Shown here: positions 18,247 to 50,065 of the stretch, piece after piece
Layout of the letters: each line of letters opens with the position of its first letter
How positions within the stretch are numbered: position 1 is the stretch's first letter
Assembly (NCBI GenBank): GCA_963749345.1
Contig: CAVVMO010000004.1
Location: 3,053,358 to 3,117,357 of the forward strand
Origin: an uncultured Bacteroidales bacterium
GTDB lineage: Bacteria > Bacteroidota > Bacteroidia > Bacteroidales > JAADJA01
Reading direction: 5' to 3'
Length of the DNA stretch: 64,000 bases
Translations under genes and position numbers: made by a program
The notes under the pieces: model-generated
The model's database searches: none
What the model was told of the DNA's origin: nothing
What the model saw: only the letters and a program-made list of their open reading frames with translations

Positions 18247-19146
18247 TTAGCTAAATAATTTCAATCCCCAGCTAATACAATTCAGCACCCCATCGTGCTT
18301 TGCAATGGCATTTGAAGGAACCGGAACCACATTTTCCCGGCCAAACAAATTCTGAAAATCAGAAATTGCCTTTTCATCGAGTTTTTTAGTATTAAAAGTT
18401 GGAAGGAAGATCAGTTTCCCGATTTGAAGGTAATTAATGTAGAAATTTCCATCGTAATCTTTATGCGGAATAACAGCTTTTATTGTTAATCCACTTGACT
18501 TTATTGTTTCCCGGAACAAACGGAGCTTTCGGGAAAAATGCAAAGGGTACAAGCGATTTGGTTTATCATCGTTGATCAGCACTTCTTTTTCGCTGTAAAA
18601 TCTCACCATGCCATCTGCATGGCCATATGTATCAGCAGGCAAACGGGGAATGATGACAACATGTTTGACCCGAAAGTCCTCTTTGATTTGATTGATGATA
18701 ATTTGCTTTTGCTCCGGAGTCACCTTATCAAGTTTTGAAATCGGTAGTCCAAGGTTTTCAGTAAATACTTTTTCAGTCAGTATCACTTTATCTTTTGATG
18801 TAATTACATTCCCGCCATCAAGGATTAATTTACTTGGTTTGATTTTAAATCCCAATTCTTTGATCCCGTTTTGCGCTATCACCTGGTCAACATCACTCCT
18901 GCTTTTCTCATGTTCTTTTGTCCTGAGGTAATCTGGATCGTAACTATATTGCAGCAAGGTTTTCTTATCGATTTGAATGGGCATATAATCCCGGCACCAG
19001 ATATCCTTGGTTCCGTTTAACAACCTTGGCTCTATGCATTTATCCCTGAGTGCTTTTTCGAGCCGTTTCCAAAAAGGTTTGAATTCCTTCTTTTCTGATA
19101 GCTGGCTGCTGAAAAAGACGGTGTTAGTTTCGCTATTTGTTATCAT
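18247..19146 (-). CDS. Agmatine deiminase / PAD_porph-family (guanidino-group-modifying enzyme fold) protein, short form
   Basis: DIWCRDYMPIQ, LILDGGNV, GHADGMVRF and the C-terminal catalytic-Cys context GVLNCISWG. 299 aa. Confidence 0.55.
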   Translation of the reverse strand: MITNSETNTVFFSSQLSEKKEFKPFWKRLEKALRDKCIEPRLLNGTKDIWCRDYMPIQIDKKTLLQYSYDPDYLRTKEHEKSRSDVDQVIAQNGIKELGFKIKPSKLILDGGNVITSKDKVILTEKVFTENLGLPISKLDKVTPEQKQIIINQIKEDFRVKHVVIIPRLPADTYGHADGMVRFYSEKEVLINDDKPNRLYPLHFSRKLRLFRETIKSSGLTIKAVIPHKDYDGNFYINYLQIGKLIFLPTFNTKKLDEKAISDFQNLFGRENVVPVPSNAIAKHDGVLNCISWGLKLFS

Positions 19147-19738
19147 TGAGTCGATCCTGCCAGATTTGTTTTATAGATTGACCTATTTTTTTGAACTCTT
19201 CAAAGGTGAATTCATCGGTCTTCGCATTATTGCACCAGTAGCAAGCCATTACTGTATTTTCAGGAGTGTATTCAAAATTGGAATCCAGCCGGTCAACTTC
19301 AAGTGTCCATCCACGGTAGTTTTTTTTACGCAATTTATGAATTGCACCCAACTCTTCAATTTGCTTTGTTGTAATTCCGCAATAAGCACAAGTATCGGAA
19401 TCAGTTAATGCTTTGAATTTTTCTTCTGGGAAAATTTTACCGAACATTACTTGTACATAATGTCGCTGAAGCTCGCCTATCAAGGTTTTGTTTTCATTAT
19501 TCCATTGTACAATGGCTTTCTCAATTTCAGCGATTGGATAATTTCTGATTGGATAATCTGGTAATTCCTGCCAGTATTCAGTTGTGTAAAGGTTAACGAG
19601 TTCTTGCGCAATCTTATAATTTTCAAAATCGGATAGGTTTATTTGATGTATCAAATTGCTGCTGATCTTGTCGAAAAGGTAAAGCACCAGTTTTGTCCTA
19701 AAGCTATCGTTAGCTTTGATTCTGTACTTTGAATTCAT
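19133..19738 (-). CDS. HNH-like zinc-finger nuclease-fold protein with a non-canonical active-site motif
   Basis: C-terminal CAYCG...WTLEVDRLDSN...ACYWCNNAKTD, i.e. CxxC...D-R (where D-H is expected)...N...CxxC-N-x-x-K. I prefer the ATG at 19738; the track ORF starts at a TTG at 19798. Its stop overlaps the downstream PAD-like gene by 14 nt. Confidence 0.5.
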   Translation of the reverse strand: MNSKYRIKANDSFRTKLVLYLFDKISSNLIHQINLSDFENYKIAQELVNLYTTEYWQELPDYPIRNYPIAEIEKAIVQWNNENKTLIGELQRHYVQVMFGKIFPEEKFKALTDSDTCAYCGITTKQIEELGAIHKLRKKNYRGWTLEVDRLDSNFEYTPENTVMACYWCNNAKTDEFTFEEFKKIGQSIKQIWQDRLNDNK

Positions 19739-19868
19739 ATGGGAAAATTTTGATCCAAATGTATTAATATTCCCAGTATATTTACGGCGATTTATCAAGC
19801 ATGATATTCTTTCAGCCTTTCAGAAAATTAATTCTTAGGGGTTATAGTAACTGTAAATAGACATAATT

Positions 19869-20465
19869 GTGAATATCAAGGAGATTACCGATAATGCTTT
19901 ACTTCTTGCTGTTAAGAGATCAAAGAGGAAGAAAATTGCAGGGAAAATTCCAAATGGGGATTTTCAAAAACTGCATGCACTCCGGGCACGTGAATGGGTG
20001 GAGGCTTTGGCCGAAACTTTCAGAAAATACTATGATGAATTGAAAGAACCTAATGTCCGTGTGTTTTCGAAGTATAGCAACTATAACCGCAAAGATTTCG
20101 GACTTAACGAGCTCCTTTTCGATATTTCCGTTGTTAAAACTGCAACCATCCAGTCTCCCCGGCATAAAGAATTGACCTACATCGAAAAAGCCCTCTGGAT
20201 CGTGGAATCAGAAATGGCAAATGATACCCGGCAATTGGTACTTGATTTCAGCAAGCTTGTGATGGGCGATGCGGAGAATAAGTTGTTTGTGGGACCACTG
20301 AGTGAAGAAATTTTTAATTTTATACCACAGCTATGTGCTGTTGCCCGGAACTGCAACGGATTAGTTCATCTGTGTCTTGTTCCTCATCCTGAAAAATGGG
20401 AAAAAGATGAAACTAAGTTAAAGATGTGGTTTTTTGAATCTAACAAGTTTATTGAAATAAATTAA
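19869..20465 (+). CDS. Hypothetical protein, first gene of the five-gene operon
   Basis: 198-aa ORF with a GTG start, 16 nt upstream of the helicase gene. No motif recognised. LLFDISVV...WIVESEMAND could be a PD-(D/E)xK-like core, but that is speculative. Confidence 0.45.
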   Translation: MNIKEITDNALLLAVKRSKRKKIAGKIPNGDFQKLHALRAREWVEALAETFRKYYDELKEPNVRVFSKYSNYNRKDFGLNELLFDISVVKTATIQSPRHKELTYIEKALWIVESEMANDTRQLVLDFSKLVMGDAENKLFVGPLSEEIFNFIPQLCAVARNCNGLVHLCLVPHPEKWEKDETKLKMWFFESNKFIEIN

Positions 20466-20481
20466 TAAGAAACAATTAGGA

Positions 20482-23400
20482 ATGCCCAAAATTTACGACA
20501 ATATAGAAAACCACTTGACGCAGGGTCTTAATGAAACTTTAGAAGTATCGCAAAGAACGGATTTTTGCGTAGGCTATTTTAATTTAAGGGGTTGGAAAGA
20601 AATTGCAGATAAAATTGATTCTTTATCAGGATCAATCATAACAGAGGGTAAAGATGATATTCATCGAATTTGCAGACTTTTAGTAGGAATGCAAAAACTG
20701 CCTGTGGATATGCTCCGCGATTATTTTAAAACAGAAGAAGATCATCTGCTGGATCAAAACGAAGCAGTAAAACTCAAAAAAAGATTAGCACAGGAATTTA
20801 AAGATCAGCTTACTATTGGGATGCCTTCAGATGCTGATGAATTGGCTTTACGCAAATTGAGTCAGCAAATGAAAGATAAAAAAGTTGCTGTAAAATTACA
20901 TTTACGGTATCCCTTACATGCAAAACTTTATTTGGCTTTCAGCAATGATAAAAGAGTACCTGTAGTAGGTTTTTTAGGCAGTAGCAACCTCACTTTAGCC
21001 GGACTTGCAAAACAAGGGGAATTGAATATTGATGTATTGGAACAGGATGCGGCAAATAAACTATCAATATGGTTTGATGACAGATGGAATGACCGATGGT
21101 GCATTGATATAACCAATGAGTTAATTGAGATAATTGATAATAGTTGGGCAGCGGACCGCTTGGTATCACCTTATCATATTTACTTAAAAATGGCTTATCA
21201 TCTTTCACAGGAAGCCAGGGCCGGTTTAAATGAATTTAAAATACCTGTTGTTTTCAGACAAGAACTTTTACCATTTCAACAAGCAGCAGTTTTAATTGCA
21301 GCAAAAAAACTTAATAGTCGCGAAGGAGTCTTTATTGGTGATGTTGTGGGTTTGGGTAAAACAATTACAGCATGTGCATTGGCGAAAATATTTGAAGAAG
21401 ATTTTTTCTATTCTACACTTGTCATTTGCCCCCCGAACATAAAGCAAATGTGGAATGGATATATCAACAGGTACGATTTAAAGTCGAATGTAATTTCCAT
21501 TGGTGAAGTGCAAAGAAAACTTCCAGACTTGCGACGATATAAGCTTGTTATTATTGATGAAAGTCATAATTTACGAAATGATCAGGGAAGTCGATATCGT
21601 TCAATAAAAGCCTATCTTGAAGAAAATGACAGTAAGGTTATTTTACTTTCAGCAACTCCTTATAATAAATCCTATCTGGACTTATCAAATCAACTTCGCC
21701 TTTTTATATCTGATGATAAGGATTTAGGCATTAGCCCTGAGAACTACATTAATAATATTGGAGGTCAAGTGCAGTTTTCAGCTTTGCACACCGAAACTTT
21801 CATTCGTAGTATTAAAGCATTTGAAAAAAGTAATTATGCTGATGATTGGCGTGAATTAATGCGGCTTTATCTTGTACGTCGTACCCGAAGTTTCATTAAG
21901 GATAATTATGCTGAATTCGATCCTGTTAAAAACAGGAAATATTTAACTTTTTCTGATGGGACTCGTTCTTATTTCCCTGATAGAATACCTAGGAAAGTTG
22001 AATTTGATTTTGACCCAAATGACCCTAAAGACCAATATGCAAAATTGTATTCACAAAATGTTGTCGATACCATTAACGGTCTTGATTTGCCGCGCTATGG
22101 TTTAGGAAACTATATTGTTCAGAACCCTGTTATAAAACCTACTAAAGAGGAAGAAGTAATCATTGCCAATTTATCCCGTGCCGGTAAACGCTTAATGGGT
22201 TTTTGCAGAACTAACCTTTTCAAACGGCTTGAAAGTAGCGGTTTTTCTTTTTTAATTTCGCTAAGCAGACACATATTACGGAACTATGTTTTTTTCTATG
22301 CTATTCAGAATAAATTACCAGTCCCAATTGGAAAAAACATATCACAAAACCTTGATGATTTCCTTGATGATGAGGATACAGATAATAATGGAGAAAATGA
22401 AAATATAATCAGTTTTATTCTTGATGAAAAGCAATACTTGAAAAATGCTTCTAAGGTTTACGATCTTTATTCAAGTAGTAAATTAAAAAAGCAATTTGAT
22501 TGGATCAGAAGTGAATTTTTTTCTACCGCCTTGCTCAAACAGCTTTCAAATGACAGTAATGAAATCACAAAGATTTTAAAGATTGGTCAGGATTGGAATT
22601 GTGATGAAGACAGAAAATTGAATGCATTGTATAAATTACTTAGCGAAAAGCATAAAAATGAAAAAGTCCTGATTTTTACTCAGTTTGCCGATACTGCAAT
22701 TTATATTGCTGATCATTTAAAATCAAGAAAACTTGAAAATCTTGAACACGTCACTGGAAATAGTGAAAACCCAACTGCATCAGCGTATAGATTTAGTCCG
22801 ATAAGCAATAAATTTCCTTCAACCAAAGATGATATCCGGATTTTGGTATCGACTGATGTATTAAGTGAAGGTCAGAATTTACAGGATGCCCATATCATTT
22901 TAAATTATGATTTACCCTGGGCTATTATCAGGCTGATTCAGAGAGCCGGACGTGTTGACCGTATCGGGCAAAAAGCAGAAGGAATATTCTGTTATTCATT
23001 TTTGCCGGAGGACGGAATTGAACAAATTATTAATTTGCGGCATAGACTCACAAGCCGGATTCGTCAAAATGCTGAAGTGGTGGGCTCCGATGAAGTTTTC
23101 TTTGATGGTGATCCAATTAACATAGAGGATCTTTATAACGAGAAAGCCGGAATTTTAGATGAAGAAGAAGACAGCGAAGTTGATTTATCTTCCTATGCTT
23201 TTCAAATCTGGAAAAATGCAACAGACGAAACACATGAATTGAAAAAAACAATTCCTAATCTCCCTAACGTAATTTACGCTACAAAACAAAACTTGTTAAG
23301 TCCGGAAAAAGAAGGAGTCGTGGTTTATACACGAACTTATGATGAAAATGATATTCTTGCATGGGTTGATACCAATGGCAATATTATTACACAATCGCAG

Positions 23401-23838
23401 TTGACAATTTTGAAAGCTGCTGCTTGTAATTCTGATGTTGACCCGTGCTATAAAATTTTTAATCATCATGAGCTTGTTAAAAAAGGCATTGAATATATTC
23501 GTGATGATGAAAAAAACACCGGAGGATCACTGGGGAAAAGAACCGGGGCGAAATACAGGGTGTATATGCGGCTCGACAGGTATTGCAAAGAATTTGAAAA
23601 TACATTATTTGTGAACGATGCCTTAAAAAAGGCAATTGATGATATTTACAAATATCCTTTTAAAGAATTTGCCAGGGAAACATTGAATCGGCAATTAAAA
23701 GCCGGTATTTCTGACGAAGATCTTGTCAACCTAGTCGTTTCATTGCGGGAAGAAGATAAACTTTGTATTGTAAATCTGGACGAAATGCCCAACAAGGAAC
23801 CTCAGATTATTTGCTCAATGGGATTAAAAAATAAATAA
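20482..23838 (+). CDS. PLD-family nuclease domain fused to an SNF2-family helicase
   Basis: N-terminus has LHAKLYLAF...GFLGSSNLT (HxK...GSxN PLD motif). SNF2 motifs: VVGLGKTITA (I), VIIDESHNLRN (II), LLSATPYNK (III), STDVLSEGQNLQDA (V), IQRAGRVDRIGQ (VI). Confidence 0.85.
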   Translation: MPKIYDNIENHLTQGLNETLEVSQRTDFCVGYFNLRGWKEIADKIDSLSGSIITEGKDDIHRICRLLVGMQKLPVDMLRDYFKTEEDHLLDQNEAVKLKKRLAQEFKDQLTIGMPSDADELALRKLSQQMKDKKVAVKLHLRYPLHAKLYLAFSNDKRVPVVGFLGSSNLTLAGLAKQGELNIDVLEQDAANKLSIWFDDRWNDRWCIDITNELIEIIDNSWAADRLVSPYHIYLKMAYHLSQEARAGLNEFKIPVVFRQELLPFQQAAVLIAAKKLNSREGVFIGDVVGLGKTITACALAKIFEEDFFYSTLVICPPNIKQMWNGYINRYDLKSNVISIGEVQRKLPDLRRYKLVIIDESHNLRNDQGSRYRSIKAYLEENDSKVILLSATPYNKSYLDLSNQLRLFISDDKDLGISPENYINNIGGQVQFSALHTETFIRSIKAFEKSNYADDWRELMRLYLVRRTRSFIKDNYAEFDPVKNRKYLTFSDGTRSYFPDRIPRKVEFDFDPNDPKDQYAKLYSQNVVDTINGLDLPRYGLGNYIVQNPVIKPTKEEEVIIANLSRAGKRLMGFCRTNLFKRLESSGFSFLISLSRHILRNYVFFYAIQNKLPVPIGKNISQNLDDFLDDEDTDNNGENENIISFILDEKQYLKNASKVYDLYSSSKLKKQFDWIRSEFFSTALLKQLSNDSNEITKILKIGQDWNCDEDRKLNALYKLLSEKHKNEKVLIFTQFADTAIYIADHLKSRKLENLEHVTGNSENPTASAYRFSPISNKFPSTKDDIRILVSTDVLSEGQNLQDAHIILNYDLPWAIIRLIQRAGRVDRIGQKAEGIFCYSFLPEDGIEQIINLRHRLTSRIRQNAEVVGSDEVFFDGDPINIEDLYNEKAGILDEEEDSEVDLSSYAFQIWKNATDETHELKKTIPNLPNVIYATKQNLLSPEKEGVVVYTRTYDENDILAWVDTNGNIITQSQLTILKAAACNSDVDPCYKIFNHHELVKKGIEYIRDDEKNTGGSLGKRTGAKYRVYMRLDRYCKEFENTLFVNDALKKAIDDIYKYPFKEFARETLNRQLKAGISDEDLVNLVVSLREEDKLCIVNLDEMPNKEPQIICSMGLKNK

Positions 23839-23841
23839 ATT

Positions 23842-26800
23842 ATGTTGAACATAGATACTACCAGAAAGCATTTACAGGCTTTTGATTTTAAAACACTTTT
23901 TATTGAGGAAATTGGTTGGAACAAACCCACCAATAAAAACGCAGTTGCTTTTAAAACAATAGAATGTAACTATTATCGTACGGCTATTTCTGAACTATCA
24001 GGGGCTGTGGTTTACGAAATTACCTCCTCAGAAGGGAAAATACCAGATGCAAAAGAACGAGCCTCTATTAGCAACCTAATTCAGAAAATTAATTTTGAAC
24101 ATATTCTCATATTTGTTGATGCCCAAAGAACACAATCTATTTGGAGATGGATAAAAAAGCAGGATAAGAAATCGTTGCCCAGAGAGCATTATTTTTCCAG
24201 AGGTCAATCCGGCGATTTATTCATTTCAAAATTGGCAGGTCTTTTTGTCGATATCAGCGAAATTGAAAATGATATCACCATAACCGATGTCGCAAAAAAA
24301 ATTCAGATTGCATTAGACATTGAAAGGGTTACAAAAAAGTTTTACCGCGACTATCAAACTCAGTTTATCTCCTTTCTTGACTTGATAGAAGGAATTGATA
24401 ACGAAGCCGACAAGCATTGGTATGCTTCAGTTATTTTAAACCGTTTAATGTTCATTTATTTCCTTCAAAAGAAAATGTTTTTAGATAATGGTAATGCAAA
24501 TTATCTGTCCGATAAATTACAGCACTCCAAAGACCAATTTGGTAAAAATAAATTTTACGACACCTTTTTGCATAAGCTATTTTTTGAAGGTTTTGCAAAA
24601 GCCGAAACACAAAGAGATGCAACTACAAACAAACTTATTGGAAAAATTAAATATTTGAATGGCGGCTTATTTTTGGTACACAAGATAGAAAAGAAATATC
24701 AAGGCAAAATCAAAATTAAAGATAATGCATTTGAAAATCTTTTTAGTTTGTTTGATAGTTATAGCTGGACATTGGACGACACACCGGGAGGTAAAGACAA
24801 TGAGATTAATCCTGATGTATTGGGTTATATTTTTGAAAAGTATATCAACCAGAAAGCATTTGGGGCTTATTACACACGTACCGAAATAACCGAATACCTC
24901 TGCGAGCAAACTGTTTACAAACTTATATTAGACGAAGTAAACGAACCTGAAATTGACCCTGATTTATTGAAAAAAGCAGGTCTTGATAAATATGGAAAGG
25001 CAAAATATTATATAAGCATTGCCGAACTCCTGTTAAATTTAGATGCTGCCACTTGCAAAAAACTAATTACCGGTGAAAATGCAGTATTGCCCAACTTGAG
25101 TTTGCTCGACCCTGCTTGTGGTTCAGGAGCTTTTTTAGTGGCGGCAATGAAAACACTTATAAATGTGTATTCAGCTATTCTTGGGAAAATAGAATTTCTG
25201 GGTGATAAAAAATTGATGGAGTGGAAAAAAGAAATTGAGAAAAACCACCCCAGCATAAACTATTACATAAAAAAGCAGATTATTACCAACAATCTGTATG
25301 GTGTAGATATAATGGAAGAAGCTACTGAAATAGCTAAATTACGTTTGTTTCTAGCATTGGTATCTAGTGCCCAGACCGTTGACCAATTGGAACCCTTACC
25401 AAATATTGATTTTAATATTATGAGTGGTAATTCCCTGATTGGTTTGATGCGTGTTGACGAAAGCGAATATAATAAACACCAAAAGGAAGATTTGTTTAAG
25501 AAAAGTTATCGCGAATTGGTAAACCAACGTGAAGCTGCAATCCGGGCATATAAGTCTTTTGAAAACTCGAACGAAAATGTTCAAGTTAAGAAAGAAAGTA
25601 TTGAACGTATGGAAACCGAAGCGAATGAAATTTTAAATATAATGCTCGGCCATGAGTTTAACAATTTAGGCATTAAATACGAGCAAATAACTTGGGATGA
25701 TAAAAAAAACAAAGAAGGCAAATCCATAAAACGCAAAATAAATCTTGAAGATATAAAAGCTCTTGAACCTTTTCACTGGGGCTATGAATTCTCAGAAATT
25801 TTCAGAAAGAAAGATGGTTTTGATGCAATCATTACAAATCCGCCTTGGGAAATATTTAAACCTCAAGATAAAGAATTTTTTGCTCCTTATTCTAACACGA
25901 TTAAAAAAAATATTCAATCAATAAAAGAATTTGAAAAAGAAAAAGTTGAACTGCTAAAGAATGAAAATATAAGAAAATTGTATTACAAGTATCTTAGCAA
26001 CTATCCACATCTAAGCCAATACTTTAGAAGTTCGCATCAATTCAAAAATCAAATTTCTATTGTCAACGGTAAAAAAGCAGGTTCTGATATAAATCTTTAC
26101 AAACTCTTTGTTGAACAATGTTACAATCTTATAAAGAAAAAGGGTTACTGCGGGATTGTCATACCAAGCGGTATATACACTGACTTGGGTACAAAGCAAC
26201 TCAGAGTATTGCTCCTAAATCATTCTGAAATACTTAATCTTATTAGTTTATCAAATGAAAGAAATTTGTTTGAAGGTGTAATGCACAATTTCAAATTTTG
26301 TTTGCTAACGTATAAAAAAGATAAACCGAAAGATTACTTTAAAGCTTCCTTTAGAATTTATGTTCATGAATCTGTTAGTCCTCAAGAGTTGGATAGTTTT
26401 CTTGAAAGTGATGAATTCAAATTAAAGATTCCGATTAAAATTGTGAAAGAATTTGCACCTGAATCTCTTTCAATAATGGAATTCAAAGAAGAAATTGATT
26501 TAACTATAGCAAATAAACTTATTGCTTTTCCTATGCTTGGTGAAATTGTTCCTGATTCATTCAAACTTTCACTAAATAGAGAATTTGACATGACAGGAGA
26601 TAGCAAATTATTTCAAACTACACCTAATAAGGGAAGTTTAGTTTTATACGAAGGTAAAATGATTCATCAGTTCACGCATCAGTTTAGTGAAGCACAATAC
26701 TGGGTAAATGAAAAAGATGCGCGTAAATCAATTATAGGTAAAAACGGAACCGATAATGGGCAGAAACTAGAATATCAAGAATATAGAATTGGAACAAGGG

Positions 26801-27345
26801 CAGTTGGGGGCAGTGCAAATGAGAGAGGTTTAATTGGAACAATTCTTCCAAAAAATATTTTTTGCGGAAATTCAATACTCGTAAATACAAGTAGAGATGA
26901 TAATGATTACTTGGAAAACAAAAATAAACTTCTGCTTTTAGGATTTTTAAATAGTTATCCCATTGATTATTGCATACGGCAAATGGTTGCTACTAACATC
27001 AATATGTTTTATATTTACCAATTACATATTCCACGATTAAAACTCAAAGATAAATGGTATCAAGCCATAGTGGAAAGGGTTGCACAATTAATATGCACCA
27101 CCAGTGAGTTTTCAGAGTTATGGGAAGAAGTAATGAAAAGTAAATGGTGCGAAAAAGTTGCCGCCACCCAAGAATATGAACGCAATAAACTTAGGGCAGA
27201 ACTGGATGGTATCATTGCCCATATTTACGGATTAACTGAAGAAGAATTTTCATATATTCTTAGTACCTTTCCTATTGTGCCACAACCGCAAAAAGTGGCC
27301 TCGCAAAATGCTTACAGGGATGTTTTAAATGGATTAATAAAATAA
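23842..27345 (+). CDS. Large Eco57I/type IIG-like N6-adenine DNA methyltransferase with C-terminal specificity region
   Basis: LLDPACGSGAFLVAAM (motif I), AIITNPPWEIFKP (NPPW motif IV), and the C-terminal ...IYGLTEEEFSYIL tail common in this family. 1167 aa. Starts 3 nt after the helicase stop. Confidence 0.85.
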   Translation: MLNIDTTRKHLQAFDFKTLFIEEIGWNKPTNKNAVAFKTIECNYYRTAISELSGAVVYEITSSEGKIPDAKERASISNLIQKINFEHILIFVDAQRTQSIWRWIKKQDKKSLPREHYFSRGQSGDLFISKLAGLFVDISEIENDITITDVAKKIQIALDIERVTKKFYRDYQTQFISFLDLIEGIDNEADKHWYASVILNRLMFIYFLQKKMFLDNGNANYLSDKLQHSKDQFGKNKFYDTFLHKLFFEGFAKAETQRDATTNKLIGKIKYLNGGLFLVHKIEKKYQGKIKIKDNAFENLFSLFDSYSWTLDDTPGGKDNEINPDVLGYIFEKYINQKAFGAYYTRTEITEYLCEQTVYKLILDEVNEPEIDPDLLKKAGLDKYGKAKYYISIAELLLNLDAATCKKLITGENAVLPNLSLLDPACGSGAFLVAAMKTLINVYSAILGKIEFLGDKKLMEWKKEIEKNHPSINYYIKKQIITNNLYGVDIMEEATEIAKLRLFLALVSSAQTVDQLEPLPNIDFNIMSGNSLIGLMRVDESEYNKHQKEDLFKKSYRELVNQREAAIRAYKSFENSNENVQVKKESIERMETEANEILNIMLGHEFNNLGIKYEQITWDDKKNKEGKSIKRKINLEDIKALEPFHWGYEFSEIFRKKDGFDAIITNPPWEIFKPQDKEFFAPYSNTIKKNIQSIKEFEKEKVELLKNENIRKLYYKYLSNYPHLSQYFRSSHQFKNQISIVNGKKAGSDINLYKLFVEQCYNLIKKKGYCGIVIPSGIYTDLGTKQLRVLLLNHSEILNLISLSNERNLFEGVMHNFKFCLLTYKKDKPKDYFKASFRIYVHESVSPQELDSFLESDEFKLKIPIKIVKEFAPESLSIMEFKEEIDLTIANKLIAFPMLGEIVPDSFKLSLNREFDMTGDSKLFQTTPNKGSLVLYEGKMIHQFTHQFSEAQYWVNEKDARKSIIGKNGTDNGQKLEYQEYRIGTRAVGGSANERGLIGTILPKNIFCGNSILVNTSRDDNDYLENKNKLLLLGFLNSYPIDYCIRQMVATNINMFYIYQLHIPRLKLKDKWYQAIVERVAQLICTTSEFSELWEEVMKSKWCEKVAATQEYERNKLRAELDGIIAHIYGLTEEEFSYILSTFPIVPQPQKVASQNAYRDVLNGLIK

Positions 27346-27352
27346 ATAGTTT

Positions 27353-28552
27353 ATGATAACAAATATTCATATTAAGAATTTCAAGGCCATAAAAGATACA
27401 GGAAATTTAAAACTTAATCCAATTAGCTGCTTTATTGGTTACAACGGCTCTGGGAAAAGTAGTTTGCTGGAAGCGCTGTTGACTTTCAAAGAAATGACAA
27501 CTGAAAATCTTGATAAGGCACTAGACCGTTGGAAAGGGTTTGAAAACATTCAGTACAAAGGTGTAAGCAGAAGTAAGGTAATTCATAAAAAGTTTCTTTC
27601 AGATGCTGCTGTTGAAATTTTCAATCAACCTATTTCTTTCAAAATAAAATCAACCTCAAAAAAAGAAAAAAAAGGAACAAGAAAAAACTACATAGCCGAA
27701 GCTTCTCTTACAAAATTATCGAATGGTGAAAAGATAATTTTTTTAGAAGAAAGTTTTACTTACAAAGCTGAACGCGATTTTGTTTATAATCGTGACTGTG
27801 ATGGTCAATTATATTATAGCGATAAAAACAAAGCAGCATATTCAGATGACAGTAAACATTTTAAACTGGCAATGAATAAAAGTTTATTCAGTGATCAAAA
27901 TTTGCCACATGAAATAGCACAATGGCAATTTTTGCGAATGAACCCCGATGTTATGGGTGAACCATTCCCTCAAAAAAGGACCTCTGGTTTCTTACCATTA
28001 AACATTGATGGTTCCAATGTTGCAGAATATTTATTGAGTATTAAGGAAACAAGTTTGCCTGCTTATGAAAGTATTCTAAACACTATGGTTTCAACTGTGT
28101 TGCCTTATGCAAGTGATTTACAGTCAGAACTTACTTCATCTGTTGACCGTAAAATATTTTTAAATTTAACAGAGAAAAACTACAAAGTTCCCGGTTGGTT
28201 ACTTTCCACAGGTACTTTAAGAATAGTTGCATTGCTGGCGGTGTTACGTCATCCGCAACCTGCACCGGTTGTTGTAATTGAGGAATTGGAAAATGGACTT
28301 GACCCCCGGACTATCAATTTAGTTGTAAATGAAATTAGACTATTTACAAAAAAGACGGGCTCACAAGTAATATTTACAACGCATTCACCTTATCTGCTTG
28401 ACCTGATGAATTTGAAAGAAATAGTTTTTGTAGAAAAAGTTGATGGGAATGTTAAATTCTCAAAGCCTTCTGATAACGAAGATTTAGCAATATGGGCAGA
28501 AAAATTTACTCCCGGCAAGTTATATACAATGAGTCGTTTAAATAGCAGATAA
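27353..28552 (+). CDS. ABC/AAA_21-type ATPase (OLD/AbiL/PARIS-class ATPase architecture)
   Basis: Walker A GYNGSGKSSLLEAL, signature-like LSTGTLR, Walker B VVVIEELENGLDP, H-loop FTTHSPYLL. Confidence 0.75.
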   Translation: MITNIHIKNFKAIKDTGNLKLNPISCFIGYNGSGKSSLLEALLTFKEMTTENLDKALDRWKGFENIQYKGVSRSKVIHKKFLSDAAVEIFNQPISFKIKSTSKKEKKGTRKNYIAEASLTKLSNGEKIIFLEESFTYKAERDFVYNRDCDGQLYYSDKNKAAYSDDSKHFKLAMNKSLFSDQNLPHEIAQWQFLRMNPDVMGEPFPQKRTSGFLPLNIDGSNVAEYLLSIKETSLPAYESILNTMVSTVLPYASDLQSELTSSVDRKIFLNLTEKNYKVPGWLLSTGTLRIVALLAVLRHPQPAPVVVIEELENGLDPRTINLVVNEIRLFTKKTGSQVIFTTHSPYLLDLMNLKEIVFVEKVDGNVKFSKPSDNEDLAIWAEKFTPGKLYTMSRLNSR

Positions 28553-28555
28553 TTT

Positions 28556-29152
28556 ATGAAATACGGATTTATTTTTGAATGCCATTTAGATGGTCCTGAC
28601 TTCAAAGTAGTGAAACATATTGTTGAAAATTGGGTGAATCAGAAAATTCAATTTGAGCCTGTTACTTTAGGTGATAAAGGGTCACTTCTTGAACAATGTA
28701 CTGATAGTGTAGAAATGCTGTTGAGAACAAAATGCGATAAGGTTTTTATTGTTTGGGATTTAATGCCAAAATATGCCAACTGTAATTGCATAGTTGAAGA
28801 AAGAAATTTAATCAGGCAACAACTAATTGATAAAAATATTCCTCTTGTCAATGTTGAATTTATTGGCATTGTCCATGAATTGGAAAGTTGGTTAATTGCT
28901 AACGTATCAGCGATTGAACGAGTCTTATCAACGGTAGCTCATCCTATTAACATTGCAAATATTCGCTATCCTGACAGGGATAGAAATCCGAAAGGGAAAT
29001 TGAGAAAAATATTTTTACAAGAAAGAGGATTTGACTACAATGATTTAGATTATGCATTAAGAATAATTCAAAATGTCCAAAGACCGAAAGATTTGAAGAG
29101 GAGTGTTTCGTTTAAAAGGTTTTATCTTAAATTAACTGGTACACAATTATAA
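28556..29152 (+). CDS. DUF4276-like (Toprim-like) small protein partnered with the ATPase
   Basis: Starts 3 nt after the ATPase stop. YGFIFECHLDG (acidic E near the N-terminus), VFIVWDLMP, and ELESWLIAN resemble my recollection of the DUF4276 pattern. Not verified by HMM. Confidence 0.45.
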   Translation: MKYGFIFECHLDGPDFKVVKHIVENWVNQKIQFEPVTLGDKGSLLEQCTDSVEMLLRTKCDKVFIVWDLMPKYANCNCIVEERNLIRQQLIDKNIPLVNVEFIGIVHELESWLIANVSAIERVLSTVAHPINIANIRYPDRDRNPKGKLRKIFLQERGFDYNDLDYALRIIQNVQRPKDLKRSVSFKRFYLKLTGTQL

Positions 29153-29218: not shown

Positions 29219-29391
29219 CTTTAGGTAAGGTGAATAAAAATGGAAAAATAATGTTCAAATGGAAGAAAGTTATTCCTAAAAACAACCATGATTAAGCAGC
29301 AACTTGGCAATCCGGAAATATTAAACTTAAAGAAAACGGCATTTTTATGCAGCAGAAAAGTCCCTGCTTCCCCCCGCTGCCGCGCGATTGT

Positions 29392-29554
29392 ACCTAAAAT
29401 CCGCATGTCTTTGACTTACTTATTACAAATATCAAGTTGCATATAGCTTTTAATAATACAATTTATTTTTATGCTTCACCTTTTGAGGTGATGAATAATG
29501 TTATAAACACTCAGTTTTTACTGATACTTCAAATTTGACATGCGGATTTTAGGT
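29392..29554. repeat. 18-bp perfect inverted repeat pair enclosing 127 bp of AT-rich DNA (MITE-like or invertible-segment-like)
   Basis: acctaaaatccgcatgtc (29392-29409) and its exact reverse complement gacatgcggattttaggt (29537-29554). Confidence 0.6.
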
Positions 29555-29650
29555 TGTATCGCTGGGTTTTAACATACCTCCTCCTTCTTCTTTAATTTTT
29601 ACAGGCATTTACCTGGATTAAAACTTCTTTCTTTATCTTTGAACCTTATA

Positions 29651-29731
29651 TTGAGGGCCACCGATAAAGAAACAGATAAGATGGTTTATGAACTCTACGG
29701 GCTGACAGAGGAGGAGGTGAGGGAGAATTAA
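29651..29731 (+). pseudogene. Orphan C-terminal remnant of a type IIG/Eco57I-like R-M protein
   Basis: Translates to LRATDKETDKMVYELYGLTEEEVREN*. The same ...YGLTEEE... tail ends the intact methyltransferase at 27345. There is no upstream coding body. Confidence 0.4.
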
Positions 29732-29763
29732 AATCATTAAAGAATGAATAAAATATTACCCAT

Positions 29764-31908
29764 ATGAAAATTAGCCAAATTATCGACAAAATTGACGAAA
29801 AGCAATTGTTTGTTCCAGCCTTCCAAAGAGAATATGTTTGGAAAAGACAAAATGCAAAGGATTTAATCAATTCCCTGATAAAGGAATATCCTACAGGTAC
29901 TATGCTTACTTGGGATACAAATAGTCCGCCTGAATTAAAAGGACCTCACAAATACGATGAGCGTCAGGGAACAGTGAAATTAATCTTAGATGGCCAGCAG
30001 CGTATTACTACTTTGTATATGTTGATCACTGGTAAAATACCACCCTATTATAAAGAAGCAGAAATATTACAGGATGCCCGCAATCTTTATGTAAATATTG
30101 AAACCATGGAACTCGAGTATTATAAAAAGACAACCATGGAAAACAATCCGCTTTGGGTTAATATCACTGATATATTTATGGGTAAAGTCAGATTACGAGA
30201 CGTTGTTGAAAAATTAGAGACCCAGAAAGGTAGTCAAAGAATTTCGCGCGAACTGGAAAATGTAATAGATGATAACATTACAACTATTCAGAAAATAAAA
30301 GACAGAGATTTTGTCGAACAAATTATTCCAACAAAAGCAAGGATTAATGAGGCTATCAACATTTTTTACATTGTTAATGCCAGCGGAGTTAATCTAACGG
30401 ATGCTGAATTGGCGCTTGCTCAAATTTCAGGTTATTGGCCTGATGCACGAGAACAGATAAAGGCGAAATTAAGACAACTGGAGAAAGATGGTTGGGTATT
30501 TAATCTTGATTTTATGATGTATGTTCTCCTGGGTGTTCTTTACAATCTGGGATCAAAAATGGAGAAATTGCATCCAAAAGAAAATTTTCCAAAAATCAAG
30601 GAGGCCTGGGGTCAATTAGAAAGTGATACGCTCGATTATGTTTTTAATATCATGAAGAGTCAGGCTTTTATTGATCATACCAAGGAAATAAATTCAGTTT
30701 ATGCGCTTATCCCTATAATATCTTTTGCCTTTAATAAAGGGAAAGGTAGGATGACGCAGATTGAAATAAAGAAAGCAATTAAATGGTTCTATTTTTCACA
30801 AATAAGACAGAGATATGTTAGTCAGTTGCCTCAAAAACTTGACAGAGATTTACGTATTGTAGCTTCCGATCCTAATCCTTTTGATAGTCTTATTGCTGTA
30901 ATTCAATCAGAAAGAAAACTTGAGATTGATAAGGATGAATTTATTGGCGCAGGTGTCAGCCATCCGTTATGGGGTCTTATGAAATGGTATTTTAAAAGCA
31001 AGAATGCTGTTTGCCTTAGCACAGGCATTTCTATCAGAAAGAATATGGGTAAAAAGTATGACCTGGAATATGATCACATTTTCCCTTATTCCGTCCTTAA
31101 AGAGAATGGATATAATATCAACAATAAGATTAAATATTCATTCGCCCAGGAAATAACCAACAGAGCTGTTCTAACCACAGTTGCCAACCGGACTAAAGCG
31201 GCAAAATATGCTGATGGGTATTTGCAGGAAGTTAAGAAGAGTTTTCCAGAAAGCTTAAAACTCCAATGTATTCCAGAAGACGAAGAACTTTGGAAATTGG
31301 AAAATTATGAAATCTTCATTGAGAAAAGAAGAAAACAACTTGCTAAAGAACTCAATAAATTTTTAAATGATTTCACAGAAACACAGCAAAAAGAAGTTAA
31401 TGTTGATGTTTACGACATGATACAGGCCGGTGAAAACCATAGCGTGGAGTTTAAAACCTCTCTCCGGTATGACATGAAAGAAAATAATGTCAACAAGCAA
31501 ATTGAAGATGTAATCATTAAAACAATAGCAGCATTCAGTAACGGGCAGGGAGGAACTTTAATAATTGGTGTAGATGACGACATGGAAATAATAGGATTGG
31601 AAAATGATTATAACACTTTAAAAAATGGCAGTAAAGATGAATTTGAACTTCATTTACGTAACTTAGTCAATAATGCCTATGGTGTAGGATTTGCTGCAAA
31701 CAATATAAAAGTAACATTTCCCGTGATTGAGGATAAGGAAATTTGTGTAATTGAAATAAAACCCGGAAACAAGCCTCTATATACTGTTATAACAGATAAG
31801 TATAATATTAAAAGCGAAAAATTCTATTTAAGGAGTGGCAATTCTTCACCAGAATTACCCCCTCGTGAGATACCGCTGTATGTAAGAACTAGGTTTGATG
31901 TGCTATAG
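29764..31908 (+). CDS. GmrSD-like type IV restriction protein: DUF262 (ParB-like NTPase) + DUF1524 (His-Me/HNH-like) + C-terminal AlbA_2 (Schlafen-type) domain
   Basis: LFVPAFQREYVWK and ILDGQQRITTLYML (DUF262). LEYDHIFPYS...NRAVLTTVANRTKAAK (DUF1524). GENHSVEFKTSLRYD...IAAFSNGQGGTLIIGVDD (AlbA_2). Confidence 0.8.
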   Translation: MKISQIIDKIDEKQLFVPAFQREYVWKRQNAKDLINSLIKEYPTGTMLTWDTNSPPELKGPHKYDERQGTVKLILDGQQRITTLYMLITGKIPPYYKEAEILQDARNLYVNIETMELEYYKKTTMENNPLWVNITDIFMGKVRLRDVVEKLETQKGSQRISRELENVIDDNITTIQKIKDRDFVEQIIPTKARINEAINIFYIVNASGVNLTDAELALAQISGYWPDAREQIKAKLRQLEKDGWVFNLDFMMYVLLGVLYNLGSKMEKLHPKENFPKIKEAWGQLESDTLDYVFNIMKSQAFIDHTKEINSVYALIPIISFAFNKGKGRMTQIEIKKAIKWFYFSQIRQRYVSQLPQKLDRDLRIVASDPNPFDSLIAVIQSERKLEIDKDEFIGAGVSHPLWGLMKWYFKSKNAVCLSTGISIRKNMGKKYDLEYDHIFPYSVLKENGYNINNKIKYSFAQEITNRAVLTTVANRTKAAKYADGYLQEVKKSFPESLKLQCIPEDEELWKLENYEIFIEKRRKQLAKELNKFLNDFTETQQKEVNVDVYDMIQAGENHSVEFKTSLRYDMKENNVNKQIEDVIIKTIAAFSNGQGGTLIIGVDDDMEIIGLENDYNTLKNGSKDEFELHLRNLVNNAYGVGFAANNIKVTFPVIEDKEICVIEIKPGNKPLYTVITDKYNIKSEKFYLRSGNSSPELPPREIPLYVRTRFDVL

Positions 31909-33103: not shown

Positions 33104-36100
33104 ATGGTACTAAAAAAAACGATAATAATATGTTTGTTATTGATGGGATATTGTTTTTGTTTTAATGCACATGCACAAATTACTACTACAGGACCAATAC
33201 CATCTAAAGGCACATATAGGGGAAAAATAAATAAAATGAGTAAATCTCAGGTAGTAATACCAAACGTGGACTCGTACTTATGGAGACATGGATGTGCACC
33301 GACATCCGTAGGCATGGTGATAGCTTATTATGATGAAAATGGATATCCAGATTTATGTGAGGGGACATTAGCGGAAGGAGTAAAACAAGCAATTGCAAGC
33401 GATGCACATTATAGCGATTATTCCCAGCCATTAGATCCAAAACCTGATCCAATTATACCAGATAAATCTGAACTTGGGGGAGCGCATACATCAAATTGTA
33501 TTGCAGACTTTATGGAAACTTCATGGAGTATTGAAAACTTACATTATGGATGGACTGGGGCGAATAAAATTGAAGAGGGTTTTATTGAATACGTTAGCTA
33601 CAAAAATAATAGTTATTATATGAAAACTTCGACTGAAATTTTTTCATATGGGACTTGTTGGGAATTGTACAAAAATGAAATAGATAATAACAGACCGGTG
33701 GTATTATTTGTTGATTCTGACGGAGATGATCAACCTGATCATGCTGTAACAGGGATAGGATATGATGAAGCAATAGGGGAATTTGCAATTTATGATACAT
33801 GGGATCATGATGTGCACTGGTATGAATGGCATGAAATACTACCAGACATACCATGGGGAATAGAGGAAATATACACATTCCAAATAGAACACAAAGAACA
33901 TTATTATGATTTAAAGGTATTTCTTGAAGGACCTTTTTCTGGAAGTAATATGAGCACAAATTTAAATTCAATAATACCATTAAAGCAACCCTATAACATA
34001 GCTCCATTCAATTACAATGGAAACGAAAGTGTTACAACAATACCGAACCAAAATATTGTTGATTGGATTTTAGTCGAAATACTGGAAAGACAAATAGCAG
34101 GAGAAGATACTACTTTTGTGTTAAGAGCCAGAAAAGCAGCGTTTTTGCTGAACAACGGAGAAATAAAAGATTTAGATGGAACAAGTATGTTACTTTTTAC
34201 CGACATTCAATTAATAAACTGTTTTGTGAGAATAAAACATCGAAATCATCTGCAAATAACATCTTCTGTGCCTGTTACGCAAATTGGTGACATTTCTAAT
34301 TATGATTTTACAACGAGCGCGGATAAAGTAATGGGGGGATTATATTCTGTAAAGCAATTAGCAACCAATATATGGGGTATGATAGCGGGAGATGGAAATG
34401 CTAATAGACAAGTAAATAACATGGATAAAGATGATGTATGGATTTTACAAAATGGTTTAACTGGATATTATGCAGGCGATTATAACTTAAATGGAGCTGT
34501 TAACAGCACAGATAAAGAAATTAATTGGGAACAAAACAGTGGCAAAGGCACCGATATTTTTGAAAACTACACAGTATATGAATGTCCAAGTTCATTGAAA
34601 GATGGGAGGGACGGACAATCCTATTTAACAGTGCAAATTGGAACTCAATGCTGGATGGCTGAAAACTTAAATGTTGGGAAAAGAATACAGGTAACAGAAG
34701 ATATGACTGATAATGGAATTATAGAAAAATATTGTCTTGATGACGATACAACATATTGTGATAAATACGGAGGTTTATATCAATGGAATGAGATGATGCA
34801 ATATATTACTCAAAATGGTACACAAGGTATTTGTCCTCCAGGGTGGTATATCCCTTCAGATGATGATTGGTGTACTTTGACAACATATATAGATGCAACG
34901 GTTGATTGTAATATAAATGGATGGAGTGGAACAGATGCTGGGCTTAAGATGAAAAGTACAAGTGGATGGTATTCTAATGGAAATGGAACAAATATTTTTG
35001 GATATACCGTCTTGCCAGGATCATACCGGCAAAATAATGGAGTTTATGGGCAACATGAACGCTATGCCTACTTCTGGACAAGTAATATTTATGATGCAAC
35101 ACAGGCTTATAAACGTTATTTTTATTATGATAATAACGCTGTTACGAGAAGTTATACTCCCAAGAATAGCGGATATAGTATTCGATGTTTAAAGGGTATT
35201 CCACAAATTGAAACAACAAATGTTTATAATATTACCCAAAATACTGTAACAATTGCAAGCATTATTACTGACCAGGGGGCTACGGAAATTACTGAACGAG
35301 GAGTGTGCTGGAGTACATCAAAAAATCCACTTTCATCAGGGACGCATACTTCAGATGGAACCGGAACAGGAAATTTTACAAGCGAGATAACAGGATTAAT
35401 TGCAAATACTCATTATTATGTACGGGCTTATGCAACGAATACAGCTGGAACTGCTTATGGCAAGGAACTTGTATTCGTAACAATTCAAGGAACATCGCAA
35501 AGTTGTACAAATGACCAAACAGTGATATATGAAGGACTGATATATAATACTGTTCAAATCGGTAATCAATGCTGGTTAAGGGAAAATATTAATATAGGTA
35601 TAATGATAGATGATGACAGCATACCTAAGAACAATGGTATTATAGAGAAATATTGCTATAATAACGCACAAAACAACTGTATTATATATGGCGGGCTTTA
35701 TCAATGGAGTGAAATGATGCAATATTCGAATTTACCAGGGGCACAAGGTATTTGTCCACCAGGATGGCATCTACCAACGGATGGAGAATTTTGCTCCTTG
35801 ACTCAATTTATTGATCCATCGGTAAATTGTAATTCAACAAGTTGGAGCGGTACAGACGTGGGTTTAAAAATGAAAAGCACAACAAGCTGGAATTCCGGAG
35901 GGAATGGGAATAATGCTTCCGGATATACAGCATTAGCAACAGGTTATCGTACTGACAACGGTAGTTTCAGTAGTTTAGGAACCCTTAATAATTTGTGGAC
36001 AACAACCCCTTACAATAGCACTTATTCATATGCACGTAGATTGGGTTCATCCAATTCTAATATTATGCGTAGTTATTTTAATAATGAGTATGGAAACAGT

Positions 36101-48787: not shown

Positions 48788-49939
48788 TTATTTTTTAGAT
48801 TCAAATTGACTATAAAAATCAGCTATTATTTCTTTCTTTATTGAATGAAGTTCTTCAACCTTAGCTTTACTTGTGACTCTATCACCACCATGATAATTAA
48901 CAATATGCCGTTCCCATCCTGAAGTATAATCTGTAAGATTTTTTTCGAATGTCTTACGAGAATCATCATCAAAAACTGCAATTCTAGAGTCTACAAGTTT
49001 CTTTATTTCCTCTTTAAGATTATCAATTTTTGTATTAATATTTTCAATATCTGATTTCAATTGAGTAATTTTGGAATTAAGAATATTTATTTTGGTTTCA
49101 GTTTTTCTAGTAAGCAATTTAGGATTTAATCCAGTTAAAAATGTATCTAAAAGCATACCCCATACAAAATAAGCACCAAATCCAAGTAAAATGATAGCTC
49201 CAAATGTTCCTAAAATATTATCTATTAGATATTCATTAAAAGGGGGCAACTCAGAGAGTAAAGATTCTTGACTATATATCTGTTTTTCGACAACAAAAGC
49301 GATAACAACATCTAATATGAAAACAAAAATTAATATTGAAAGAAATGCAGTCCACTGCTTTTTTTGCTTGTATTCATGAATTAAAAATCCAATTCCAAGC
49401 GGTAAAACAGCAAGAAGAATTGAAATAATCTTTAAAATAAAAGGTAAAGTAACGAAATTGTCCCAAAGAGTTGGAAGGGTTGCCTGAATATCATCTTGCA
49501 TTTGATTTGTACTTGATCTGACAAGAGTACCAACAACTCCGGATAATGTCAGCCCATAAAAAAGAAACAATGCTATACCTAATATAACCACTATACTGCC
49601 AGAAATTATCAAGGTTAAATTATTCTTTTCAATATCTATTTTTGATAATTCTTCTAATAGTTTATTCTTTTCTAATTCTTTAGAATTAATTTCATTCTCT
49701 TTATAATCTATTAATCCTAATTGCTGATTTATGTTTTCTTGAATAGAATCTGTTATTTTTTGTTTAGCAGAGTCACTAATTTTTGTATGGTCATTACAAA
49801 CAATTTTTAATTTATCCCTAAATTGATGAAAATTAGGGTAAAACTTAGTTGCTTCGCGGTATCCTCTTGTATCAAAATGTATATCAGAGGATTTATCGTC
49901 AGCAGAAGTTGGCAAATTTTCATTATTTAAATTTTCCAT
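48788..49939 (-). CDS. Hypothetical coiled-coil / 4-TM / coiled-coil membrane protein (first gene of the cassette)
   Basis: From ATG 49939. N-terminal coiled coil (KENEINSKELEKNKLLEELSKIDIEKNN), four hydrophobic helices, and a C-terminal coiled coil (INILNSKITQLKSDIENINTKIDNLKEEIKKL). Confidence 0.45.
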   Translation of the reverse strand: MENLNNENLPTSADDKSSDIHFDTRGYREATKFYPNFHQFRDKLKIVCNDHTKISDSAKQKITDSIQENINQQLGLIDYKENEINSKELEKNKLLEELSKIDIEKNNLTLIISGSIVVILGIALFLFYGLTLSGVVGTLVRSSTNQMQDDIQATLPTLWDNFVTLPFILKIISILLAVLPLGIGFLIHEYKQKKQWTAFLSILIFVFILDVVIAFVVEKQIYSQESLLSELPPFNEYLIDNILGTFGAIILLGFGAYFVWGMLLDTFLTGLNPKLLTRKTETKINILNSKITQLKSDIENINTKIDNLKEEIKKLVDSRIAVFDDDSRKTFEKNLTDYTSGWERHIVNYHGGDRVTSKAKVEELHSIKKEIIADFYSQFESKK

Positions 49940-50065
49940 TAAAATATTATTTGGGATCAAAATTGAATATAAAAGTCAAAGAAACAATTAAATAATTGAA
50001 ATCAAAAGTACATAATTTGTATAGAACAATTTGCCGAAAGTGTTATTTTCATAATGTTCCAATTT

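Follow-up and report, generated by a model that had tools for sequence, protein, structure and literature searches.

A probable recombinant copy of an uncharacterised restriction-modification-like family with a linked ABC/Toprim pair in a Bacteroidales genome

The five genes and their helicase-nuclease/methyltransferase core

The stretch of 64,000 nucleotides analysed here (the window; positions 3,053,358 to 3,117,357 of contig CAVVMO010000004.1 from an uncultured Bacteroidales bacterium) carries on its forward strand five intact genes, g1 to g5, which are separated by spacers of 16, 3, 7 and 3 nt and, to judge solely from these short gaps, are presumably co-transcribed. A 'leader' of 198 aa with a GTG start (g1, 19869-20465) is followed by a PLD/HKD nuclease of the NgoFVII type fused to an SNF2-family translocase (g2, 20482-23838, 1118 aa), by a protein that combines a DUF7814 N-domain, an N6-adenine methyltransferase and a target-recognition region (g3, 23842-27345, 1167 aa), by an ABC-type ATPase (g4, AAA_21, HEC-01A/Mad3-like, 27353-28552, 399 aa) and by a DUF4276 protein of the Toprim superfamily (g5, 28556-29152, 198 aa). 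The favoured reading, with a probability of roughly 0.6, sees in the locus a recombinant version of a widespread ATP-dependent, methylation-based restriction-modification (RM)-like system of anti-phage defence with a linked ABC/Toprim module. The gene coordinates, common strand and spacing proposed in the original prediction, which had been made from the window's letters, proved correct, as did its domain and motif calls for g2 to g5, which Pfam and PADLOC matches and homologue alignment reproduced; the catalytic motifs of these four proteins are all present in the window and 90-100% conserved over the homologues.

The g2 protein matches RE_NgoFVII/PLDc_2, SNF2-rel_dom and Helicase_C in Pfam, RE_NgoFVII above the Pfam cutoff, as well as the PADLOC 'HKD+Snf2' model (8.5e-46), and its motifs H146-x-K148, G166SSN, GLGKT290-294, DESH359-362 and QRAGRVDRIGQ820-830 are invariant in 89 homologues, with sequence conservation uniform along the protein. 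The family is very large, with at least 8000 scored candidates and relatives of 52-91% identity across many phyla; among the matches listed, 120 relatives from several phyla share 73-91% identity. In phage genomes, relatives of g2 were remote only and no relative of g4 was found.

What accompanies g2 was determined in 80 genome loci collected with g2 as the seed. In 71 of these 80, or in 71 of the 74 informative ones, the gene immediately after g2 encodes a protein sharing the first ~366 residues of g3, six of the nine others being contig ends, and the window with its 3-nt gap between g2 and the DUF7814-methyltransferase has the same arrangement. Beyond this N-domain the methyltransferase differs from locus to locus, such that the DUF7814 domain (aa ~1-366) is the sole methyltransferase part conserved across subtypes. 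In the usual operon as recognized by clustering of open reading frames (ORFs), here called type A, g2 and the methyltransferase are followed by a gene for a protein of ~150-210 aa termed c2, which is DprA-like (DNA_processg_A; PsyrA/ShosA-like in PADLOC) and present in 38 of the 80 loci, all of type A (e.g. L001:19169-19633 and L051:16714-17349). Diverse riders are inserted between the type-A core genes, such as KilA-N, YhcG/DUF1016, RhuM, DUF3800, ParA-like and GxxExxY-like genes, a deaminase-HATPase_c_4 gene and a KAP NTPase, a pattern of embedded genes known from Hma and other systems (Payne et al. 2024 preprint).

In databases the pair appears as 'helicase-related protein' and 'DNA methyltransferase / type IIG'. 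A literature search found no paper characterising the g2/g3 pair and none on 'DUF7814'; the adjacency is mentioned in passing, as a PLD+SNF neighbour in a table of inversion contexts, where the methyltransferase partner is called 'homologous to Cj0031' (PMC9881135).

The g3 protein is a methyltransferase of the gamma-class N6-adenine type, with the motifs DPACGSGAF423-431 and NPPW666-669, Pfam matches to Eco57I (5.6e-25), MmeI_Mtase and N6_Mtase, and a DUF7814 match just under the Pfam cutoff in its N-terminal third. It is most variable at aa ~800-1040 of the conservation profile, where target-recognition domains lie. By sequence it belongs to families labelled type IIG, namely the PADLOC REase_MTase_IIG models PDLC03628 (408.7 bits, 1.5e-122, aa 2-366) and PDLC03613 (190.9 bits, aa 387-1148), the first of which covers the type-A methyltransferase of L001 end to end (1060 bits), and relatives are named 'type IIG', 'type IIL MmeI' or 'DNA methyltransferase' in databases. 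These labels, a weak MmeI_hel match and the wording 'homologous to Cj0031' would suit a g3 that is a complete single-chain type IIG/IIL enzyme with its nuclease in the DUF7814 domain, as in Cj0031 or MmeI-type enzymes, and a g2 that is auxiliary or separate. The AlphaFold2 model of g3 aa 1-400 (predicted local distance difference test score, pLDDT, 81.7) likewise shows an alpha/beta N-terminal lobe compatible with a restriction-endonuclease core. This explanation is nevertheless improbable, as the N-domain has no Pfam match to MmeI_N or another nuclease family, its model no significant fold match in the PDB and no clear PD-(D/E)xK triad, and the strand positions where (D/E)xK would be expected read, tentatively, ExT or WxK in the alignment; moreover, it leaves the near-obligate adjacency of g2 (71/74) unexplained. 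Searched against the sequences of solved structures, g2 and g4 gave only generic helicase or ABC matches, and neither g3 nor g5 gave any.

A type-A family member with an experimental record is slr6050 on plasmid pSYSX of Synechocystis PCC 6803 (L175, 43696-51129). It lies behind a homologue of g2 (48% identity), from which an embedded VapBC pair separates it, and it shares with g3 the N-domain (41% identity) and the methyltransferase core. The gene was tentatively assigned as M.Ssp6803IV with the motif GA(m6A)GGC, attempts to delete it did not lead to segregated mutants, and no link to the helicase gene upstream was drawn in that study (PMC6105098). As failure to segregate is the phenotype expected of methylase loss beside an active restriction partner, the PLD-SNF2 gene upstream of slr6050 could explain it.

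The ABC/Toprim pair behind one methyltransferase subtype

The g4 protein matches AAA_21 (3e-29), AAA_15 and SMC_N in Pfam, and shows a Walker A motif (29-36), the signature residues S285 and G287, a Walker B motif (I309-E-E311), H344 (in TTHSP) and, in the conservation profile, a hypervariable insert at aa ~76-175. For g5, the DUF4276 match of the window copy (25.4 bits) lies under the Pfam cutoff of 30.2, and all 16 of 16 family members match the domain (best E 1.5e-15); E8, D15, D68, E110 and K146 are conserved, the four acidic residues invariantly. DUF4276 is a Toprim class with conserved metal-binding residues and corresponds to Mad4 of the MADS system (PMC12065111). In its predicted make-up, an ABC ATPase with an adjacent TOPRIM/DUF4276 protein, the pair corresponds to the PADLOC candidate HEC-01: the HEC-01A model PDLC04175 aligns with g4 at E 9.4e-46 (aa 2-398, covering positions 6-360 of the 363 in the model), and g5 matches weakly (best E 1.8e-5 with a HEC-01A-labelled model, best HEC-01B E 2.5e-5). 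HEC-01, the Hma-embedded candidate 01, has been described as a two-gene cassette of ABC ATPase and TOPRIM protein and treated as autonomous (Payne et al. 2024 preprint).

Only 3 of the 80 g2-seeded loci have g4-g5 behind g2, all in the same gene order (L032, Lunatimonas; L033, Aquiflexum; L073, a metagenome-assembled genome of Polyangium). From the other side the association is much tighter. In a second set of 79 metagenome loci, which was found with a g4 alignment and is biased towards the clade of the query and by the search patterns, the complete g2-g3-g4-g5 block is present in 16 loci, three more are cut within g4, and in ~13 further short contigs the 3' end of a g3-type gene abuts g4. About two thirds of the close g4 relatives, in three phyla, have g2 and a full-length methyltransferase of the g3 type immediately upstream, with gaps of 7-25 nt or overlaps to the methyltransferase. 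This order of a full-length g3-type methyltransferase, an ABC ATPase and a DUF4276 gene is here termed type B; it is found in the window (gaps of 7 and 3 nt), in L088-L125 and in others, its methyltransferases being full-length g3 relatives of 42-70% identity. The hosts of the four-gene block are Bacteroidota, Myxococcota and a cyanobacterial plasmid, pANACY.05 of Anabaena cylindrica, whose homologues of g2 to g5 (53, 51, 41 and 35% identity) are annotated in order as helicase-related, DNA methyltransferase, ATP-binding and DUF4276 proteins. The four-gene combination thus recurs across several phyla and is uncharacterised to date.

The original prediction had offered either two systems welded into one transcription unit or a single system of five components. 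The latter does not stand, as a g1 homologue is present in none of the 159 related loci (80 seeded with g2 and 79 with g4), and the five-gene block sought in other genomes never recurs, although the block of four does. The proposed linkage of helicase and methyltransferase to ATPase and DUF4276 protein is upheld by the four-gene block in ~30 metagenome loci, three genomes and one plasmid, but not by the g2 relatives at large, as given above. A clean split into named systems finds partial support: hidden Markov model (HMM) libraries divide the locus into parts that occur separately, HEC-01 being a listed one, but the recurring four-gene block speaks against it. The DprA-like c2 as the usual third gene, its remnant in the window and the recombination of two subtypes were not foreseen.

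Independent systems might simply be stacked at this locus. The g2-g3 genes would then be a self-sufficient RM pair, g4-g5 an autonomous HEC-01- or PARIS-like rider acting by abortive infection or as a nuclease, and g1 a third independent gene, with co-transcription reflecting the economy of a defence island. PADLOC HMMs split the locus along the same lines, the HEC-01 cassette was first delimited as an insert of another system, Hma, the pair is rare behind g2, the slot it occupies is taken elsewhere by many unrelated genes, ~12 close g4-g5 pairs are solo in unrelated contexts, and in L105 g4-g5 is found together with c2, as expected of an insert. Stacking does not readily account for the fixation of about two thirds of the close g4 relatives behind one methyltransferase subtype in three phyla, nor for the neighbour-joining (NJ) tree of g4 (like the other trees here, without support values), in which linked copies hold all deep ingroup branches and solo copies are nested. 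Plasmid4 of Calothrix NIES-4101 (L174, 5558-10802) has retained homologues of g3-g4-g5 without g2, the upstream 'helicase' being a D5_N/DUF3854 replication primase-helicase. In addition, c2 accompanies g4-g5 in only 2 of ~35 loci (L105, and as a fragment in L128) as opposed to 38 of the 80 g2-seeded loci, and MADS, where mad3 and mad4 are needed for defence and the essential mad5 could be removed only if mad2 or mad3 was removed as well, provides a precedent for integration. Stacking is therefore judged unlikely, and the linkage of g4-g5 to g2-g3 is one-sided but real. The pairwise divergences of g2 to g5 also correlate (r 0.50-0.92), to which little weight is given, as only nine non-redundant loci could be compared, many g5 genes having been lost in ORF calling.

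Chimeric origin, the downstream remnants and the leader gene

The window copy is, by nucleotide identity and gene tree, a chimera of a type-A g2 with type-B g3-g4-g5. Nucleotide identity to the type-A locus L001 (81%) is bounded by 20482 and 23837, exactly the g2 ORF, and the best match for g4-g5, at 80-84% identity, is the type-B locus L088, ending at 29151 with the g5 gene. In the NJ tree of g2 the window protein is nested in a clade with type-A partners, and the g2 proteins of L088, L089, L094, L032 and L033 form a separate clade; switches between A and B partners occur elsewhere in the tree (L017, L021, L066 and L093).

Downstream of g5, at 29288-29371 on the forward strand, a tblastn search revealed a 5' stump of a DprA-like c2 gene of 28 codons, with 68-75% identity to c2 N-termini (E 5.6e-9), whose homology stops at ~29372; the rest of c2 was sought across the window and not found. 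Twelve nt after the breakpoint begins an element of 179 bp (29384-29562), bounded by inverted 26-nt arms (29384-29409 and 29537-29562) which are 88% complementary and 127 nt apart, with an 18-mer core that occurs in the window only at the two arm sites (0.07 matches expected by chance), possibly a miniature inverted-repeat transposable element or an insertion scar. Further on, the forward-strand segment 29654-29731 (…RATDKETDKMVYELYGLTEEEVREN followed by a stop) gives matches of 16-22 aa to the C-terminal motif ELDxLVAxLYGLTEEE (E ~1e-5 in a small search space), and is tentatively a 3' remnant of another Eco57I-type methyltransferase gene. In the simplest history, the methyltransferase segment of a type-A operon would have been replaced by type-B g3-g4-g5, and c2 would have been lost afterwards.

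The chimeric origin, the c2 stump and the patchwork of remnants at 29372-29760 could also be expected of a decayed mosaic, in which g2 of type A and g3 of type B are incompatible, c2 is destroyed and at most orphan methylation persists. This is quite improbable: all five ORFs are full-length with intact catalytic motifs, c2 is missing from most type-B loci anyway, and the A/B partner swaps recur in the g2 tree, so that mixing seems to be tolerated.

The remnants are followed by a gene on the forward strand (29764-31908) for a GmrSD-family protein (DUF262, HNH-like; GmrSD_N 1.8e-30) with a Schlafen/AlbA_2 C-terminus (SLFN_AlbA_2 8.5e-19), which also matches PADLOC HEC-05 (1.3e-46) and is a separate type IV-like defence gene outside the operon. 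GmrSD-family genes directly after g5 are also found in L090 (11774-13477) and L093 (11881-13959), the Schlafen/AlbA_2 C-terminus being an extra of the window copy. The gene in the window may have its own promoter in a -7 motif of the Bacteroidetes type (TATCTTTG) at 29634.

For the leader g1, the absence of a recognisable motif that had been noted at the outset extends to Pfam, PADLOC and NCBIfam, where no match was found. In its unannotated family, which comprises 691 representative clusters at 50% identity and has no Pfam model, E81, D85, E113, E115, D126 and K129 are invariant; domain fusions in longer family members were uninformative. Its AlphaFold2 model is highly confident (pLDDT 95.3) and of novel appearance, has no significant fold match in the PDB or BFVD, and the weak matches, to NucC, DUF4365 and other restriction-endonuclease-fold proteins, share a PD-(D/E)xK theme that is suggestive only. 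The protein is probably restriction-endonuclease-like, perhaps a nuclease. The three homologues nearest to it (57-60% identity; L081, L167 and L168) stand first in type I RM operons, two of them overlapping the hsdR start by 4 nt and the third preceding an acetyltransferase-like gene and then hsdM-hsdS, and remoter homologues are solo or on mobile elements. The leader is an accessory that recurrently heads restriction operons and not a conserved part of the four-gene system, which probably does not require it.

The G+C content is 32-36% over ~20-33 kb compared with 38-43% on either side, which fits an acquired island; tRNA and Rfam scans of the whole window were both empty and give no clue to an integration site, and scans for sigma-70 promoters, terminators and Bacteroidetes -7 motifs as boundaries of transcription units stayed at chance level. 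Divergent to g1, a 221-aa ORF with a TTG start (19133-19798, reverse strand) shows weak HNH and PtuA/PtuB-like matches (E ~1e-3) and overlaps by 14 nt the final part of an agmatine deiminase-like gene (PAD_porph). Farther downstream the window holds a gene (33104-37048) for a protein of 1314 aa, in which a Peptidase_C39-like N-terminus is joined to three Fib_succ_major domains and which points to a host of the Bacteroidota/Fibrobacter type, 2.5 kb without any ORF of at least 90 aa (~41450-43940) beside a strong GC skew (0.23-0.37 at 43-47 kb), and a segment of very low G+C (27-30%) at ~47000-50000; tandem repeats were looked for across 29-48 kb and not found.

Relation to named systems and a proposed mechanism

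As anticipated, no canonical class fits: none of g1 to g5 reaches the curated NCBIfam cutoffs of a named system, the best partial matches being DrmD, DpdE, MAD2 and MAD3. Class 1 DISARM has an SNF2 helicase, an Eco57I-like adenine methylase and a PLD nuclease domain in common with the locus, and domain-level matches to DrmD, DrmMI and a DrmC-like PLD might suggest a minimal or degenerate version of it. The DISARM core DrmA/DrmB is however absent, as the original prediction had already stated: no DrmA or DrmB/DUF1998 gene is present at the locus or among the neighbours scanned in related loci, the DrmA match being to a generic helicase C-domain only (E 8e-14). DrmD (NF038317) reaches 133.7 of the 610 bits set as its curated cutoff, PADLOC ranks 'HKD+Snf2' and a type IIG methyltransferase above the Drm proteins, and PLD is here fused to SNF2; the locus is not a DISARM system, and a minimal or degenerate form of one is extremely unlikely.

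MADS (methylation-associated defence system, mad1-8; Maestri et al.) combines, like the locus, an N6-adenine methyltransferase with an ATPase of the ABC type, Mad3, and with Mad4, a DUF4276/Toprim protein, and MAD3 and MAD2 are the best NCBIfam matches of g4 and g3, respectively. Membership is rejected on the scores (MAD3 117 bits vs 420, MAD2 50.7 bits vs 720) and on the mandatory mad6-8 (a kinase and others), of which none was found among the nine ORFs scanned, where only the mad2 and mad3 models matched; MADS is moreover without a PLD-SNF2 subunit, and g5 is without an NCBIfam match. HEC-01 was defined inside Hma, a system of an SNF2-PD-(D/E)xK helicase, an m5C methylase and an ATPase, whereas here the pair stands behind one N6A methyltransferase subtype. 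The locus is not an Hma system, the HmaA match being partial (E 6.7e-21, aa 562-831) and the methyltransferase of the gamma N6A class.

MANTIS, or Gao_RL (BREX-related type 2), likewise has an N6-adenine methyltransferase of an asymmetric site, a PLD + SF2-ATPase effector and a second ATPase; its methyltransferase directs the dimeric effector MtsD, and the second ATPase is required. The second ATPase of the present locus is, in contrast, of the ABC type and has a Toprim partner. Neither the DUF499 AAA+ protein MtsA nor the co-regulator MtsB (DUF3870) was found at the locus, and g2 matches the MtsD-type model NF042964 with 120.3 bits (cutoff 1100) in the helicase C-region only, such that MANTIS is rejected as well. 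The loci of Cj0031 and of M.Ssp6803IV (slr6050) share with the window the DUF7814 N-domain, the Eco57I domain and the adjacent PLD-SNF gene; they differ in being type-A-like without g4-g5 and annotated as single-chain type IIG enzymes, whose helicase-nuclease partner was never analysed.

For g2, a mechanistic analogy is offered by NgoAVII/CglI, SauUSI and type ISP enzymes, in which PLD is coupled to an SF2 motor and cleavage depends on ATP. In CglI, nuclease and motor are separate proteins, and SauUSI is modification-dependent and has its own recognition domain, whereas recognition by g2 is presumably via g3. PARIS (AriA/AriB) and OLD/Gabija share with g4-g5 an ABC ATPase that regulates a Toprim nuclease. 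The trigger of PARIS is an anti-restriction protein, and this hints at a logic of guarding RM. The pair is not a PARIS system, AriB being a DUF4435 protein, g5 a DUF4276 protein without an AriB match, and the AriA match of a generic AAA_21 level only (E 4e-28).

In the mechanism we propose, g3 would methylate adenine at a short asymmetric site as a self mark and recognise unmodified sites; as it carries the variable target-recognition region, it would also be the specificity subunit. The restriction subunit would be g2, whose SNF2 motor would translocate on DNA and whose single-HKD PLD domain would cut after dimerising, similar to the combinations of PLD and SF2 modules which act as ATP-dependent restriction motors, e.g. 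in MtsD and SauUSI. The coupling of g2 with g3 is probably via the DUF7814 N-domain, as this is the only methyltransferase part conserved across subtypes. A methylation-dependent discrimination of self and non-self by such an RM-like core appears highly probable to us. That g4-g5 is functionally coupled to g2-g3 has about an even chance. If it is, the favoured role would be a second ATP-gated nuclease arm working with the g3 complex, as Mad3/Mad4 in MADS, with g5 as the presumed nuclease partner of g4; alternatively, the pair might guard the core and respond to its inhibition, in keeping with the logic of PARIS. PARIS-type ATPase-Toprim pairs are effector modules (PMC12065111). A bolder and rather doubtful extension would make the g2/methyltransferase pair a chassis with an interchangeable third component, either c2 in type A or, in type B, g4-g5 as an obligate integrated arm which docks on the methyltransferase in a dual-nuclease, dual-ATPase complex. 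If true, such an arm would explain the recurrence of Mad3/Mad4-like pairs in methylation-based defences.

Several points weigh against the reading of the locus as a recombinant RM-like system with a linked module. The family as a whole can do without g4-g5 (present in 3/80 g2 loci), the slot between methyltransferase and c2 is an embedding site filled elsewhere by unrelated riders, and one locus, L105, holds both g4-g5 and c2. Besides the solo pairs, 2-4 g4-g5 pairs stand behind another, Eco57I/TaqI_C methyltransferase, and the pair thus behaves as a mobile cassette; in the g2-seeded set it is absent from 3 of the 6 informative type-B loci (L021, L065 and L072), making it frequent in type B but not obligatory. 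When a HEC-01 representative was assayed in E. coli, it did not protect (Payne et al. 2024 preprint). As DUF7814 has neither a fold match nor a clear triad, a nuclease of the type IIG kind might reside in g3 itself; the slr6050 motif is tentative and the 'essentiality' of this gene was never tied to the upstream helicase; the chimeric pairing of g2 and g3 might be non-functional; and the functional assignments for this subtype are throughout predictions from sequence.

What is new here is an uncharacterised RM-like family, a type-B subtype with a fixed ABC/Toprim pair and a natural A/B recombinant, g4-g5 being already a PADLOC candidate as HEC-01. The window copy documents that such systems exchange modules along gene boundaries. 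The g2/g3 pair is among the more abundant helicase-nuclease/methyltransferase combinations in environmental bacteria, and if it is a two-subunit ATP-dependent restriction system, thousands of loci would have to be re-annotated and the unexplained 'essentiality' of slr6050 in Synechocystis 6803 would find its explanation. The type-B loci would then provide, after MADS, a second tractable case for the role of ABC-ATPase/DUF4276 pairs in methylation-based immunity.

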